A stretch of DNA of 64,000 nucleotides from a virus. Its lineage: Duplodnaviria; Caudoviricetes. The notes under the pieces are model-generated. The model saw only the letters and a list, made by a program, of their open reading frames with translations. It ran no database searches and was not told the DNA's origin. The stretch covers positions 32,001 to 96,000 of IMG/VR virus record IMGVR_UViG_3300032038_000001; one strand, written 5' to 3'. The number at the start of each line of letters is the position of its first letter. The first letter of the stretch is position 1. This document shows positions 11,751 through 59,789 of this stretch, piece after piece. The position numbers and the translations under genes were made by a program.

Positions 11751-12027
11751 CGCTCAACAGACCATGCCGTCTTTCTTGCATTTCTTGATACCTTTCGGTA
11801 TCATACACTGCATCACCATTTCCAGCTCTCATATCCTTGATTGCCTTTCGAATTGTTTTGATGGCCTTTTTATACTCCTTTTCGTCTATACCATCACGAA
11901 TGATATATGCGTCAAAGAGTTCTAAATACTCTTCTAAAGAGTCAGCGTCTCTATTGAGCTCATTTTGATCATACCCTTGATCAAAATGTTTTTTATTCTT
12001 CTTATTCTTTTTTCCCATTTCAATCAC
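11737..12027 (-). CDS. hypothetical early protein
   Basis: GAGGTG RBS; TATATTAT element at 12066-12073 on the minus strand. Confidence 0.65.
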   Translation of the reverse strand: MIEMGKKNKKNKKHFDQGYDQNELNRDADSLEEYLELFDAYIIRDGIDEKEYKKAIKTIRKAIKDMRAGNGDAVYDTERYQEMQERRHGLLSDDNL

Positions 12028-12136
12028 CTCATTTTTATATAATTAAAGAATAAGTATACCATAAAATAATATATAACCGTACAAGAAATCGAAAAAACAA
12101 TGGTTTAAGAAGTCTTAAATTCAAGGGAGTGAGAAC

Positions 12137-13342
12137 ATGGCTTTACTCGTTAATGAACAAAATATGATTGACCAAAACATCTTTAAATTTGAAGATAGAT
12201 TAAAATCTCCTACAGCAAGATTTTTAGACACAAGTCCAACATTTGTTACATATTATCATATAAATGTGGATGAGACAACAGTTGATGAGGGATATAAGGA
12301 TGTTGCATCAATAATTGGTTTTAGATCACCTATTAAATATAAAAAAATAGAAAATTTTCCGATGTATGGAATGGAACAAATTGTATTATCATTACAAGAA
12401 CAAGAACAAGGACTTGATACAGAATTTACTGGTGATTCTATAATTCTACCAGGAACTATAAAACCTCTGGAAAATGATTTTTTCATGATTCCTATACTTC
12501 ATGATGTATATTTATTTAGAATTACTGAAATTGCATACGATACAGTAATGCCCGATAATTTTTATAAAGTGTCATTTCAACTTGAATATATTGATCAAGA
12601 AAAAGTTGAAGCACTTGAAAAACAAGCTAACGAGCAATATACATGTATTCTTGACAATATTGGTACAGAAAATAAATGTATAATTGAAACTGGGGTAATG
12701 CAAAAGATAAAAGATATTGAAGCAATGTATAATGATATGGCTTCAACATATCTTGCATTATTTTATGATGATAGGCATAATTGTTTACTCGGGGATTTAG
12801 GATTGGGTAAAAAAATCTATGATCCCTATCAAACTGATTTTATAAACAGACATTCGTTATTTAATCAAAAGAATAATCTCAAGACAATAATACTCACAGA
12901 TCAAGTAAATGATAAGATGTTTAAGTTGAAATATGAAAAAACAGTATACAGATTTCTTGAAAGAAGAGATTATACAAGAGTAAACAATTTTAAGTATACA
13001 TATTTCCAGGGTTCATCTTATCACGAAACTACATTTTATAGATGGGCCGATGGCAATGTACAGATATTAGATATACCATCAATCATTAGTGAAAAAGATT
13101 ATGATATATTTTCAGATGAATTTGTAATGTCTATAAAGACAAATGGATTTACACAATCTAAACATGCCGAACTTATACAGGGATTTATGAGAGATAAAGC
13201 TTTATCTATTAATTCTATTCCATTAGATTTAAATGAAGAATTATATAATCTCAATAATAGTTTGGAAGTATTCTTTATAACACCGATTATAATGTATATA
13301 ATTCAAACCGTTGTTAATGATACTATACGAAATAAAATATAA
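12137..13342 (+). CDS. conserved jumbo-phage virion structural protein
   Basis: 401-aa ORF with GGGAG RBS and AACA-N6-TA at 12096-12107; structural role is inference. Confidence 0.55.
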   Translation: MALLVNEQNMIDQNIFKFEDRLKSPTARFLDTSPTFVTYYHINVDETTVDEGYKDVASIIGFRSPIKYKKIENFPMYGMEQIVLSLQEQEQGLDTEFTGDSIILPGTIKPLENDFFMIPILHDVYLFRITEIAYDTVMPDNFYKVSFQLEYIDQEKVEALEKQANEQYTCILDNIGTENKCIIETGVMQKIKDIEAMYNDMASTYLALFYDDRHNCLLGDLGLGKKIYDPYQTDFINRHSLFNQKNNLKTIILTDQVNDKMFKLKYEKTVYRFLERRDYTRVNNFKYTYFQGSSYHETTFYRWADGNVQILDIPSIISEKDYDIFSDEFVMSIKTNGFTQSKHAELIQGFMRDKALSINSIPLDLNEELYNLNNSLEVFFITPIIMYIIQTVVNDTIRNKI

Positions 13343-17439: not shown

Positions 17440-17532
17440 AAAAAATAGGGCATGATACTTCTATATCATGCCCTATTAGATTTTATAATAAAAAATCATT
17501 TATATATAAACAAAATTATAGCAATGAATTAC

Positions 17533-17605
17533 GCGTCATTAGCTCATCTGGCAGAGCACAAAACTTTTAATTTTGGGGTACGGGGTTCGAGTCCCCGATG
17601 ACGCA
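17533..17605 (+). tRNA. tRNA-Lys(TTT)
   Basis: GCGTCAT/ATGACGC acceptor stem, CAAAA-CTTTTAA-TTTTG anticodon arm, GTTCGAG T-loop; no encoded CCA. Confidence 0.93.
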
Positions 17606-35288: not shown

Positions 35289-35432
35289 TATATTATTTTT
35301 AATGTAATATATAGGTGAGTAAAAACATCTATATGTTATAAAGAAAACATATACGGTTCTTTACCACATGTCAAGTGGATTTCATTACCCGTAGTCAAAA
35401 GAAATGAAAAAAGTACATAGGAGGTACTTAAA
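35289..35432 (+). promoter_or_regulatory. early-type promoter and structured leader
   Basis: TATATTAT at 35289-35296; hairpin plus TTTCATT-AC-loop-GT-CAAAAGA-AATGAAA stem before AGGAGG. Confidence 0.55.
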
Positions 35433-36368
35433 ATGGAAGTAAAAGTAACAAAAATAGTAAGAGGGTCAATTTTCACAGTCGATGACCACAACCCGACCGG
35501 CGATATCCCATCACACAATTATATCGTCATAAACATGGGTGCTGACAGCATACCATGTGCTAAAGTAATGTGTATGGGGATAACCTCATGCCGGAACGCA
35601 TCACCGACAAATATTTTTCATGACATGATGCCTATAGTCATGAGTAATGGCTATAAATGTTATGTCGATACAACGAAAGTTTACTTCTTTAGACCCCAGG
35701 AGGTAAACTTAAATAGATTTAAGGGCAGTATTGATCTATTGATAGTAGAAAAGCTGTTAAAAGTTTTTCTAATACGGGTGGGTCTACTGCCTTTAGAGGA
35801 GTATTCAGTATTAAAGAAGGAACTGGGGTTGATAGATATATCGACCCCACAGAAGAACAAGTCTCCTCTAACTTCTGTAGATGAGGAAGACACGGTTTCT
35901 GTAACTTCTTCCTCATCTACAGAATCTTCTAAGATTTCTTCATCTGATAAAGATGAAAAGAAAGTCAAAGAAGAAAGTAAAAAGGATGAAATAGCAACAC
36001 CATGGTACCCACGGTTGATAGCTGAGTATACAGACGAGCAGCTCGAAAGAGCTCTTGTCATACTGAAATCTGGCGACGCCGAATGGTGTGCCAGAGAGAT
36101 GCGTTGCAACAGTCACAGCGCAGTAAAACATAAATTAAAGAGGATTACTGAGGAGATTAATCTAAGAACTCCTCAAAAATTCTCTGAAAAATTCCAGAAA
36201 TTCGGCTCAAAACCGGAATTCTGGGAAAAAAGTGACTTAGAGCGCTTCTCTAAGCTCTTTACAAGTGACAGAGAACAACTCGAAGTCGAAAGTGGTCAAA
36301 AGACCACACAGTTGTTCAAAATATTTGATACAGTCAAAAAGGAATTGAAAAGGAGGGGAATAAGATAA
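35433..36368 (+). CDS. MazF/PemK-like domain fused to two helical repeats
   Basis: RGSIFTV...HNYIVIN...VMCMGITS...YVDTTKV...FKGSI...VGL follows PemK order. Confidence 0.5.
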   Translation: MEVKVTKIVRGSIFTVDDHNPTGDIPSHNYIVINMGADSIPCAKVMCMGITSCRNASPTNIFHDMMPIVMSNGYKCYVDTTKVYFFRPQEVNLNRFKGSIDLLIVEKLLKVFLIRVGLLPLEEYSVLKKELGLIDISTPQKNKSPLTSVDEEDTVSVTSSSSTESSKISSSDKDEKKVKEESKKDEIATPWYPRLIAEYTDEQLERALVILKSGDAEWCAREMRCNSHSAVKHKLKRITEEINLRTPQKFSEKFQKFGSKPEFWEKSDLERFSKLFTSDREQLEVESGQKTTQLFKIFDTVKKELKRRGIR

Positions 36369-57303: not shown

Positions 57304-57513
57304 ACTAGTTTCCTTAAGAAGCTTGGCTATAAGGAAAATGGTATAGCAGATAAGAATTTCAATAATAAACTTTATGATGGTATAAAGTAAAAAAAAGAAC
57401 GCTGTGTAAGATTAAATCTTACACAGCGTTATTTTTTGCCAACAGATGGAACATAGATAAAAAAAGAAGCACCGCATATAATGCGGCTGAAACCCATGCG
57501 GTGCTTCTTATTC

Positions 57514-57885
57514 TTAGCGTCTGGGGAAACCTAACAGGCTAATATCCCAACCGAATATTTCCTGATAGATATGACGTTTTCTCTCGAAAGGTACGTCGTT
57601 AAACGTACCCTTCTTAGCATAGCAATATATAGTGTCTGTAAGACTATCTATAATATCATTGAGCTGGTCATTTGCCCAAACTCCAGTTGACTCAAGGTAT
57701 GCTAGCTGATAGACGTTAGGAAGTAATGCCGTTTTGAACAGCGGCATTAACTTATCTTCATTGTTGTCGATATACAGCAAAGATACCGATGATGTGCATT
57801 TCGCAAAAAGTTCGGTATATGTTGTAGCATCTTCATCAACGAGAGAGTTAATAGCTGTGAGAATGTTCTTTACTACGGTATTCAT
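57514..57885 (-). CDS. early hypothetical protein
   Basis: AGGAGG RBS, conserved structured leader, own terminator. Confidence 0.7.
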   Translation of the reverse strand: MNTVVKNILTAINSLVDEDATTYTELFAKCTSSVSLLYIDNNEDKLMPLFKTALLPNVYQLAYLESTGVWANDQLNDIIDSLTDTIYCYAKKGTFNDVPFERKRHIYQEIFGWDISLLGFPRR

Positions 57886-58086
57886 ATCATTAGTCCTCCT
57901 TTAGAACTATACTTTGTTTTCTTGACAAGAGTAAACAAAGGAACATATAAAATGTTCGAAAAACTCTTTTAATAATTTTTATGTAATCTTCGTTAATAAT
58001 TAACTCGACGCCTTCGCTATGAAGTTGAGGTAATTATTTATTGATTACACCGATATAGTATATAATTATAATATTTGATTTTACGG
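57886..58086 (-). promoter_or_regulatory. early promoter and conserved structured leader (copy 1)
   Basis: Shares CCTTCGCTATGAAGTT and TTGAC-N4-GTAAACA blocks with 59322-59526. Confidence 0.7.
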
Positions 58087-58151
58087 AAAAATAAAGAGAG
58101 TGATAGATTAACTTCTATCACTCTCTTTATTCTTTTTGTATCTTGTATATA

Positions 58152-58715
58152 TCACTTTTTTTGAGCAATTATATCATAAAAATGCCATTTTTTATTATTT
58201 GATTCTCTGATATATTCGATTTCATCTAATTTTATTATTTTATATTTTTGTAGATATTTTTTTACCTCCTCTATAGTGAAAGTATTGATTGACTGATTAT
58301 TTTTCCAATCATCTCTATCTCCAAATAGTTGCCCTACAAAATATCCATTATTATTTATAGAATTATAAATTTTATTCCATAAATTATCAAAATATTTTGG
58401 ATTACAAAAAGGAATACTAAAAAACGCTGTAATCGCATCAGTTTTAGGTAGTTTAATATTTTCAAATTCATGTTCTAAAAATGTTACATTTTCTTTTATA
58501 CTTTCATCAGCTCTAGATAATATATACTGTTTATTTAATTGTCTATCTACAGCCAAAACCTTAATACCATGATTTAGCATATATATAGTTTCATTTCCAC
58601 TACCACACCCTAAATCAATAGCATCTTTTATTTTATAATTATTTAAAAAATATATTAATAATTTGCTTACATCGTTATTATATGTTCTTTTTTGGTAATT
58701 TCTCCAATCTTTCAA
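58152..58715 (-). CDS. class I SAM-dependent methyltransferase (TehB-like)
   Basis: AIDLGCGSG, VLAVD, GYFVGQLFG; TTG start after AAGGAG. Confidence 0.85.
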   Translation of the reverse strand: MKDWRNYQKRTYNNDVSKLLIYFLNNYKIKDAIDLGCGSGNETIYMLNHGIKVLAVDRQLNKQYILSRADESIKENVTFLEHEFENIKLPKTDAITAFFSIPFCNPKYFDNLWNKIYNSINNNGYFVGQLFGDRDDWKNNQSINTFTIEEVKKYLQKYKIIKLDEIEYIRESNNKKWHFYDIIAQKK

Positions 58716-58931
58716 ATATTTTCAACTCCTTTCTCATTGATTAGACCGTTAAGTGATGTAAGAATGTTCTTCATTAACAATTAGCTCGACACAGTTATTA
58801 TAATATTTGTTACTGAGATAGAATATAATTATAATAATTGATTTTATGGAAACACAATTATATAAAAAAAAGAGCGAGTGTTGCAATTCGCAACACTCGC
58901 TCTTATATAGCCTTATCGTAGCTGCATTATA

Positions 58932-59321
58932 TTATATGACAGTCTTAAGTGCAGATATGATAGCTTCTGCGTTGTCGAGGATGATATCCTCAATATCATG
59001 AGTAGTACTAACATCAGGACCCCCAAACCCGTCGTTGAGGTCATTGACTTTAACTCGGATTATCATGGATCCTGTTGCGGACCCCTCCTTATTTGTGGTT
59101 GTTATTTCACAATCTCCAAAACTATCCAAGTGGGTGCTGTTGGGAACTACAGTATGAAGACGGATTAAACAGTTATTGGTCATAAGAATTTTCTTATTTC
59201 TCCATCCAATAATTTGGTTTTCTCCGTCATAGATTTCTGTACTGGTCTGAAATTCAGTTTCTGCTATGAGCGATATTAACGCTCCAACTGCAACTGCAGA
59301 AATCTTGTTGAAAGTATACAT
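58932..59321 (-). CDS. early hypothetical protein
   Basis: AAGGAGG RBS, conserved structured leader. Confidence 0.7.
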   Translation of the reverse strand: MYTFNKISAVAVGALISLIAETEFQTSTEIYDGENQIIGWRNKKILMTNNCLIRLHTVVPNSTHLDSFGDCEITTTNKEGSATGSMIIRVKVNDLNDGFGGPDVSTTHDIEDIILDNAEAIISALKTVI

Positions 59322-59526
59322 ATGATTACCTCCTTGTAATCATACTCTGTTTTATTGACTGTGGTAAACAGAAGGAACATAGAAGTTCCGAGAAACCACA
59401 TTGTTGTTTTTATGTAATAAGTTATATATATAACTTAACCTGATACCTTCGCTATGAAGTTAGGGTAAGATATTATATATTTTATTACCTAGAGATAATA
59501 TATACATAAAATTATTAGGTTTACGG
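59322..59526 (-). promoter_or_regulatory. early promoter and conserved structured leader (copy 2)
   Basis: TATATTAT at 59495-59502; same blocks as 57886-58086 with compensatory stem changes. Confidence 0.7.
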
Positions 59527-59583: not shown

Positions 59584-59654
59584 TGGGGTATCGCCAAGAG
59601 GTAAGGCAACGGACTTTGACTCCGTCATCATCAGTTCGAATCTGGTTACCCCAA
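59584..59654 (+). tRNA. tRNA-Gln(TTG)
   Basis: TGGGGTA/TACCCCA acceptor stem, ACGGA-CTTTGAC-TCCGT anticodon arm, TTCGAAT T-loop; AACA-N6-TA at 59555-59566. Confidence 0.92.
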
Positions 59655-59789
59655 TAAAAATAGGAAGTATAAATATTATACTTCCTATTTTTCATTTATC
59701 ATAAATGGTTATATATTATTTTTTTGGTATTGTAAAAATTGTTTTGCATTATCATAAAAACTTATCATTAATAAAATTTTAAAGGAGTA

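Follow-up and report, generated by a model that had tools for sequence, protein, structure and literature searches.

The stretch of DNA under investigation (the window) is 64,000 nucleotides long and corresponds to bases 32001-96000 of a 250,395-bp virus record (IMGVR_UViG_3300032038_000001, Caudoviricetes; 31% G+C). On its minus strand, two unrelated open reading frames (ORFs), belonging to what are here called cassettes A and B, are preceded by similar leaders, and between them lies a third cassette harboring a methyltransferase gene. Each full cassette is a self-contained unit, consisting of an AR9-type early promoter, a leader, an AGGAGG ribosome site, one small orphan ORF and an intrinsic terminator, the full leaders being 160-175 nt long. 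The analysis reveals that these leaders represent a real and unusually elaborate family of leader RNAs, carried on mobile early-gene cassettes; the first-pass annotation of the region (57886-59526), made from the letters alone, was right in substance.

The large ORFs include several split fragments of the beta and beta' subunits of RNA polymerase (RNAP), a family-B DNA polymerase, an NAD ligase, NrdD and a GroEL-like protein. As judged from the RNAP beta subunit, the nearest cultured phages are AR9 and PBS1 of Bacillus, at about 33% identity, and after them the Listeria phage LPJP1 and Staphylococcus jumbo phages; the virus is therefore an uncultured jumbo phage, remotely AR9-like, and its host is presumably a Gram-positive bacterium of low G+C content. 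With blastn, the region had no match among cultured phages, and when the cargo proteins of cassettes A and B were looked up by exact sequence, the sole match was a further assembly of this phage. Most of the matches to exact patterns in IMG/VR were due to chance, a copy of the leader being present in one relative only, while a pattern scan of metagenomes gave 117 stretches, five of which (5/117) are true relatives.

Copies of the leader and their cargo genes

The leaders of cassettes A and B can be aligned with each other island by island, and the methyltransferase gene has a third, weaker copy in front of it. The annotation had described two leaders sharing identical islands and compensatory stems, and the alignment bears this out, with compensatory changes in both its Domain 1 (the long 5' stem) and its Domain 2 (the following hairpins). 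The shared motifs, i.e., the upstream CCGTAAA (CCATAAA before the methyltransferase gene), the apex AACUUCAUAGCGAAGG and the GAAC/GUUC hairpin, were verified by coordinate, as were the stems CUUUGUUU/AAACAAAG and UUCUGUUU/AAACAGAG. Both full leaders fold better than 200 out of 200 shuffled sequences (z = -2.97 and -3.85).

The leader is not restricted to this region. In the genome, nine occurrences of the island CTTCATAGCGAAGG (with two mismatches at most) were counted, each of them between a promoter-like conserved stretch and an AGGAGG-ATG, and a profile search of the genome retrieved nine full copies (E = 1e-35 to 5e-55) and no other match. A covariance model of the 3' half of the leader (R1) and a structural descriptor each recovered the same ten copies, the tenth being a divergent leader located in the window at 35304-35435; two full copies thus fall within the region annotated, one variant elsewhere in the window, and ten copies in the genome as a whole. 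Five mononucleotide shuffles of the genome gave no match with the final descriptor and 0-3 matches with a first, looser version, confirming that the repeat is real and far beyond chance. The further copies, in this genome and its relatives, show compensatory changes.

The ORF behind each of the ten copies is a different one (46-311 aa), and a strong intrinsic terminator directly follows it; a terminator also lies directly upstream of each cassette promoter. None of the ten cargo proteins has a match in Pfam or PHROG, and about half of them show, by inspection, a hydrophobic helix at the start or at the end. The idea that different cargo genes are swapped into the cassettes is supported by these ten different ORFs, as well as by the gain and loss of whole units between close relatives described below. 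An IMG/VR search for loci related to the 311-aa ORF, located downstream of the divergent leader, found none. Outside the window (genome positions 11816-13322 and 130677-131612), three cargo proteins have in common an N-terminal membrane anchor and the motif RKLAKQAFDA, their C-terminal parts being unrelated and one of them very acidic; to judge from their sequences, they would form a family of membrane-anchored early proteins that diversifies as cassettes are duplicated.

Architecture of the leader RNA

The leader is predicted to be built of four modules: a 5' flush hairpin (module 1), an A-rich linker (module 2), an H-type pseudoknot (module 3) and a hairpin carrying the Shine-Dalgarno (SD) sequence in its loop (module 4). 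Their coordinates are reported in Table 1.

The pseudoknot is formed by the loop of the second hairpin, which pairs with a segment located just 5' of a pyrimidine run. This pairing is GUGG/CCAC, AUGG/CCAU, AAGAG/CUCUU or UACGG/CCGUA, and the same helix is found as UAGGU/ACCUA and UGGGU/ACCUA in one relative (G003, whose RNAP beta is 79% identical). In this helix (S1), double changes affect four of the five pairs, in an alignment that had been fitted to the nested helices only; in the helix of the second hairpin (S2), they affect four of the eight pairs, and six S1 and five S2 sequence variants exist across the classes. When the whole structure is considered, 87.8% of cells are paired and 19 of the 25 pairs covary; the five observed measures are reached by 0-9 of 500 shuffles, and their values fall sharply in slid controls. 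The order of the segments (S1a-L1-S2a-S1b-L3-S2b, L1 and L3 being the loops) is that of a classical H-type pseudoknot, and both of its helices covary. Covariation is present in every helix of the leader, in agreement with the structured RNA that had been proposed. As for the two-domain anatomy given in the annotation, both domains covary, and the GAAC/GUUC hairpin and the stem following it stand; the scheme was nevertheless incomplete, in that it missed both the covarying hairpin with AGGAGG in its loop and the pairing of the second-hairpin loop with the segment upstream of the GAAC hairpin. The small UCUU/AAGA pairing that it had placed in the S2 loop has to be abandoned, because a single class shows it while the partner segment of the pseudoknot co-varies.

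Six pyrimidines and an inserted hairpin make up L1, and the motif GUCAA is found in the L3 of every class, including the minimal knots of G003. A scan of the possible triplex registers in both orientations revealed that a single register, the parallel one that is flush with the end of the helix, yields five isosteric triples out of six in 3/3 classes. The sole non-isosteric triple always faces the pyrimidine that interrupts the S2 purine strand, and at three positions the triple switches as a unit, C.G-C to U.A-U or vice versa, between classes; the third strand over the purine strand reads UUUCUC/ACAGAG in the main class, UUUUUC/ACAAAG in the class of cassette A and UUCUUU/AUGAAA in the third class. 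The geometry fits as well, in that the third strand ends where the inserted hairpin re-enters S2. A U.A-U / C+.G-C triplex, with the pyrimidine loop 1 occupying the S2 major groove, is the probable arrangement, and the sequence evidence for it, although good, comes from three independent classes. The two leaders of G003, however, have minimal knots, with an L1 of 1-2 nt and neither third strand nor inserted hairpin, suggesting that the knot is the conserved core and the triplex an elaboration of it.

Downstream of the knot, a hairpin of 5-8 bp carries AAGGAG in its loop, its 3' arm forming the spacer to the AUG. The pairing is maintained by at least eight different stems (AAGUAC, GAUUAC, UGUAC, AGUUC, GCUC, GUGC, GCCC and AAUAC), the stability ranging from -3 to -8 kcal/mol.

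At the opposite end, a transcript with the spacing of AR9 would open with GUAAU, the first strand of a hairpin that is long and imperfect. In 16/16 full copies, pairing within module 1 begins at the predicted +1; this base is paired in the third class and in G003 as well, although their 5' hairpins are unrelated and shorter. Among 15 distinct copies, 91.8% of the module 1 cells are paired and seven pairs show compensatory changes, as exemplified by CCU/AGG, CUC/GAG and UCU/AGA beneath the apex, and no shuffle reaches the observed covariation score. The apex itself (AA-CUUC-AUAGC-GAAG-GyrUC) is nearly invariant. One cassette-A-type leader (contig L239, 9765-10001), belonging to a cassette that is found in a different genomic neighborhood, beside a DNA polymerase gene, has the 11-nt AUAUGAAUUAG in place of the apex loop AUAGC and a longer 3' bulge, the knot being unchanged. 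A kink-turn or a loop E in the internal loop of module 1 is improbable, its sequence apparently fitting neither consensus.

At its 3' foot, module 1 carries in all the full leaders (e.g., at 57981-57985 and 59412-59416, minus strand) the invariant UUACAUAAA. This includes the sequence UACAU, the cleavage motif of the Bacillus and Staphylococcus MazF, and a toxin-like phage ORF (window 35433-36368) sits behind the sole leader class devoid of it. This may be a coincidence, AUUAC being simply the complement of the conserved +1 GUAAU. A leader peptide was also considered and rejected, since the ATG embedded in the GAAC hairpin lacks a ribosome site and, by inspection, its frame is not conserved.

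Table 1. Features of the cassettes and leaders, in window coordinates.
Feature	Position	Strand	Remarks
Cassette B, upstream element CCGTAAA	59520..59526	-	-38 to -32 from predicted start; same spacing in G003
Cassette B, promoter core TATATATTAT, N6, predicted +1 G at 59488	59488..59504	-	Matches AR9 early consensus
Cassette B, module 1, imperfect long hairpin	59412..59488	-	Apex CCU-AA-CUUC-AUAGC-GAAG-GUAUC-AGG; folds, pair counts
Cassette B, module 3, H-type pseudoknot	59345..59400	-	Covariation
Cassette B, S1	59396-59400 with 59360-59364	-
Cassette B, pyrimidine strand UUUCUC	59390-59395	-
Cassette B, inserted hairpin	59374-59389	-
Cassette B, S2	59366-59373 with 59345-59352	-
Cassette B, L3 GUCAAUA	59353-59359	-
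Cassette B, module 4, AUGAUUAC-AAGGAG-GUAAUCAU	59322..59343	-	SD in loop; start codon 59319-59321
Cassette B, cargo, 129-aa orphan ORF	58932..59321	-	Hydrophobic N-terminus; no Pfam/PHROG match
Cassette B, intrinsic terminator	58870..58904	-	16-bp stem, then T run
Methyltransferase cassette, promoter and leader	58716..58849	-	CCATAAA 58843-58849; core TATATTCTAT 58818-58827
Methyltransferase leader, 96 nt, degenerate		-	Predicted +1 58811; only module 1 3' arm kept; pseudoknot absent
Methyltransferase ORF, 187 aa, TTG start	58152..58715	-	Methyltransf_25 and related Pfam hits recorded for identical gene
Cassette A, promoter	58048..58086	-	CCGTAAA 58080-58086; core TATATACTAT 58055-58064; predicted +1 G 58048
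Cassette A, module 1, hairpin flush with +1	57981..58048	-	Apex CUC-AA-CUUC-AUAGC-GAAG-GCGUC-GAG; folds, pair counts
Cassette A, module 3, pseudoknot of divergent class	57912..57968	-	S1 AAGAG with CUCUU; pyrimidine strand UUUUUC
Cassette A, further parts of the knot		-	Inserted hairpin GAAC/GUUC; S2 CUUUGUUU with AAACAAAG; L3 GUCAAGA
Cassette A, module 4, AGUUC-UAAAGGA-GGACU	57892..57908	-	SD in loop; start codon 57883-57885
Cassette A, cargo, 123-aa orphan ORF	57514..57885	-	Homologues only in related metagenomic phages
Cassette A, terminator region	57398..57487	-	Two terminator-like hairpins
Third leader class, before 311-aa ORF	35304..35435	+	5' flush hairpin unlike that of A/B
Third class, pseudoknot	35352-35409	+	S1 UACGG with CCGUA; pyrimidine strand UUCUUU; inserted hairpin CCAC/GUGG
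Third class, S2		+	UUUCAUU with AAUGAAA
Third class, SD-loop hairpin	35412-35428	+

Promoters and turnover of the cassettes

Upstream of every leader, the sequence TATATAnnAT is followed by six bases and then by a G. The early promoters of AR9, which are read by the virion RNA polymerase, have been mapped experimentally to the consensus AAATATATATTAT-N6-G(+1) (PMC5312081); the cassette cores, TATATATTAT-CTCTAG-G and TATATACTAT-ATCGGT-G, fit it, and the same core precedes the RNAP subunit genes of this phage, as early genes would have. The likeness embraces the core and its spacing to the +1 G, whereas the CCGTAAA found at -38 to -32 on the leader-bearing promoters lies outside the AR9 consensus. 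The annotation had noticed this element in both promoters, and it was confirmed by coordinate; since its spacing is kept in G003 even before an otherwise different leader, CCGTAAA is a genuine promoter element, and the leader-bearing promoters form a subclass marked by it. About 20-30 further matches to TATATATTAT-N6-G exist upstream of ORFs throughout the genome, including those of the RNAP subunits (e.g., at window positions 59726 (+), 36474 (+) and 8247 (-)), with leaders that are mostly short. A sigma-70 promoter was discarded, the -35 hexamer matching TTGACA at 2-3 positions out of six and the scan calling no site at the cassette promoters.

The comparison of orthologous cassettes disclosed that the knot is their best-conserved segment, being 91-98% identical versus 66-86% for the coding sequence, 50-79% for the linker and 62-81% for the SD hairpin. 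In the third class, the core of the knot is identical in all the related contigs fetched, whose downstream proteins belong to a set of hits that are 75-99% identical to that of this phage.

Whole cassettes, in turn, come and go. One related contig (L166), with flanks 95-98% identical, harbors at 1978-2326 a complete promoter-leader-ORF unit encoding a 45-aa membrane peptide, located between a tRNA gene and a terminator. The equivalent site of this genome contains the flank TTTTTTATTATAAAA and the terminator only; this empty site (window 17476-17481, i.e., genome 49476-49481) lies beside the tRNA-Lys gene at 17533-17605. In two other contigs (L147 and L237), the orthologue of cassette B directly neighbors that of cassette A, without the methyltransferase cassette between them, and a further cassette lies upstream. 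The tRNA-Gln (UUG) gene at window 59584-59654 (+) is divergent from cassette B and located 58 bp upstream of its promoter, and the L166 cassette abuts a tRNA gene as well; the cassettes tend, in the sequences at hand, to adjoin tRNA genes.

Leaders lying 30 kb apart in this genome are 99% identical, while the orthologous leader in L011/L096 is only 88% identical to its counterpart here, within flanks that are 95.7% identical, a difference that indicates gene conversion or recent copying. In this gain, loss and homogenisation, the cassettes resemble the PeSL (promoter-early stem-loop) cassettes of T4-like phages (PMC2839356, PMC4122927). Decay is apparent too: the methyltransferase leader, which retains the promoter and the 3' arm of module 1, can be regarded as a decayed leader of the cassette A type, and a second decayed copy (genome 139330-139412, minus strand; L213:1501-1583) has a cassette-A-type promoter and no pseudoknot. 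Both keep the +1 GUAA 5' hairpin or part of module 1.

Known RNA families and possible function

When the whole window was compared with Rfam 15, only three tRNAs were retrieved and no family reached its gathering score for the leader; the minimal knot variants gave nothing relevant either. The best sub-threshold match was preQ1-II (RF01054; 23.7 bits versus a gathering score of 47), obtained with cassette A only, where its alignment takes in two hairpins and the SD; neither cassette B nor the third class had a preQ1-II match at E <= 10. Membership of that family was rejected, because the pseudoknot partner in preQ1-II is the 3' SD tail, whereas the leader uses a segment on the 5' side and keeps its SD in a hairpin of its own. 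The covariance model R1 found nothing convincing in AR9, in LPJP1, in the Staphylococcus phage S6, in a relative with 62% identity (G002) or in the T7 A1-A3 leader region, and no description of this RNA emerged from a search of the literature. The family is undescribed, as the annotation had supposed.

It is known that H-type pseudoknots with a major-groove triplex occur in the telomerase RNA and in the SAM-II and preQ1-II riboswitches. The leader shares with them the topology S1-L1-S2-L3, a pyrimidine L1 that would run parallel to the purine strand of S2 and an A-rich L3, and its inserted hairpin recalls the P4 of preQ1-II; it matches none of them by sequence or model and differs in having the SD outside the knot, ten copies per genome before unrelated orphan genes and minimal variants devoid of the triplex. 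The ENE triple helices (MALAT1, MEN-beta, KSHV PAN) would be similar in their stacks of U.A-U triples and in their presumed protection from RNA decay, but there a U-rich internal loop clamps a 3' A-tract or poly(A), whereas here loop 1 of a pseudoknot in the 5' untranslated region (UTR) would face an internal strand of mixed A and G; with the element in the 5' UTR and a pseudoknot loop as putative third strand, the leader was not assigned to the ENE type. Closer in terms of position are the Firmicute mRNAs stabilised by a 5'-terminal stem-loop and a strong ribosome site (the aprE and ermC leaders and the STAB-SD of cryIIIA). A stem-loop at the extreme 5' end and a strong ribosome site are present here too, but those stabilisers are short and simple, lack a pseudoknot and are not repeated as portable modules. 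The early 5' UTRs of AR9 are long and are reported to share an unexplained motif (PMC5312081), although the leader model finds nothing in that phage.

The reading that we favour, with a probability of about 0.5, is that the leader acts in cis as a constitutive stabiliser of the mRNA and insulator of its translation, since this fits the portability of the module and the existence of three classes that keep the same three functional positions with different sequences. The bipartite promoter (CCGTAAA plus TATATAnnAT-N6-G) would be read by the virion RNA polymerase, as in AR9. The flush 5' hairpin would then deny entry to those RNases that depend on the 5' end, and the very stable knot, lying just upstream of the ribosome site, would block 5'-to-3' decay and insulate that site from interference by the upstream RNA, while the SD hairpin would hold it in one defined local fold. 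Any cargo gene placed behind the leader could thus be expressed strongly, predictably and early in infection, and the repeated cassettes would recombine as DNA, with leaders being homogenised and whole cassettes moved, duplicated or deleted. Several observations weigh against this scheme. The knot is apparently not needed for expression as such, because knotless, degenerate leaders lie behind promoters of the same early subclass (in the methyltransferase cassette, at genome 139412 and at one G003 promoter). A stem of up to 8 bp flanking the SD could lower translation instead of aiding it, and the invariant unpaired AUAGC, GyrUC and GUCAA, which a plain stabiliser does not obviously need, hint at a binding partner or at tertiary contacts. 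Furthermore, the copies are closely related, so that the covariation amounts to a handful of independent events in four or five classes, and we infer the early class and the start site from the likeness to AR9, whose RNAP beta is only 33% identical.

The main rival, which we hold to be unlikely but serious, considers the leader as a shared operator, through which a trans-acting phage factor (a translational repressor or activator, an endoribonuclease or a small RNA) binding the knot or the apex of module 1 would switch about ten early messages together. In T4, RegA and RegB act on early mRNAs and gp32 nucleates at a pseudoknot of its own leader, and these offer precedents. The same element before ten unrelated genes is the signature of a regulon, the knot is conserved above the coding sequence, the unpaired bases of the apex AACUUCAUAGCGAAGG and of the L3 GUCAA (in all classes) are strictly conserved, and the SD, exposed in a loop beside the knot, could be occluded by a bound protein. 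On the other hand, the replacement of AUAGC in L239 tells us that this loop is not an invariant recognition site, and the conservation of L3 can be explained by minor-groove contacts inside the knot. Processing of module 1 by the host RNase III, after which the knot would protect the new 5' monophosphate end, is improbable. Precedents do exist, i.e., the R sites of T7 and the early mRNAs of SP82 and SPO1 (the SP82 sites being cut by the Bacillus RNase III), and a hairpin of about 22-26 bp, A-U rich, with internal loops, up to 15 continuous base pairs and compensatory changes, followed by an A-rich single-stranded linker, would suit such an enzyme; yet its length and continuity vary widely, the 7-11 bp of the third class and of G003 are too few for RNase III, and the flush 5' position favours protection of the end over its removal. 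Slightly less probable still is a knot working as a sensor (small-molecule riboswitch, RNA thermometer or pH sensor) that tunes early-gene translation to the state of the host. Its fold, an H-type pseudoknot with loop 1 putatively in the major groove, is the class to which the SAM-II, preQ1-II and guanidine-III sensors belong, C+.G-C triples would make folding dependent on pH, and in some copies, by inspection, part of the SD could pair with the pyrimidine tract located where the inserted hairpin joins S2. However, this anti-SD pairing is not conserved and the SD lies outside the knot, the full-length preQ1-II match reaches half of the gathering score in one copy only and implies a different pseudoknot partner, the cargo genes are unrelated orphans without a metabolic theme, and the minimal knots of G003 do without third strand and inserted hairpin.

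Two further readings have very little in their favour. An action on the transcribing polymerase, conferring resistance to terminators in the style of HK022 put or lambda nut, might be suspected from a folded RNA directly behind a strong early promoter, and an antiterminator had been listed among the roles proposed in the annotation. This role is unlikely, because in every cassette the single ORF is directly followed by its own strong terminator, so that no put-type arrangement, with the leader preceding terminators to be read through, was found; moreover, tandem cassettes have their own promoters, the knot adjoins the ribosome site and not the promoter, and the model has no match in the T7 A1-A3 leader region. 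It is just as hard to believe that the repeat matters only as DNA, i.e., as a recombination substrate or promoter cassette whose RNA fold is incidental. This reading draws on the gain, loss and homogenisation of the cassettes and on the PeSL cassettes of T4-like phages, repeated units of promoter and stem-loop that flank insertions, deletions and replacements of orphan genes (PMC2839356, PMC4122927). In both systems, a repeated terminator and early promoter bound orphan-gene indels between close relatives, and the repeats recombine within the genome. Here, however, the phage belongs to another family, the promoter is of the virion-RNAP type and not sigma-70, the sequence differs, and the repeat includes 160-175 nt of covarying RNA, whereas the T4 PeSLs lack a long structured 5' leader. 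Compensatory changes preserve four helices and the pseudoknot (the observed counts being reached in 0/500 shuffles), and the knot is conserved above the coding sequence and the linker, while recombination needs identity and not pairing. The DNA-level and RNA-level roles of the repeat do not exclude each other.

A more speculative possibility, to which we give a rather small chance, is that the triplex knot marks the early messages, either as a bacterial counterpart of the exoribonuclease-resistant viral RNAs, on which the Firmicute 5'-to-3' exonuclease would stall, or as a self-tag for a phage factor; in the latter version, a factor such as the toxin-like RNase homologue whose gene follows one of the copies, or a ribosome-modifying protein, would spare or favour the phage mRNAs during host shut-off.

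To our knowledge, hardly any work has dealt with the structured 5' leaders of early genes in phages other than T4, T7 and lambda, and we know of none on post-transcriptional control in AR9-like jumbo phages. The leader adds to this picture a compact RNA fold, in the mRNA of a bacterial virus, whose sequence points to a triplex, and a natural plug-and-play expression cassette, used with many cargo genes, which is of interest for the design of expression systems in Firmicutes. It also offers a direct view of the way in which orphan early genes enter jumbo phages, are duplicated and are lost again. If it is true that the knot blocks exonucleases or marks the phage messages, it would represent a new mechanism of phage takeover.

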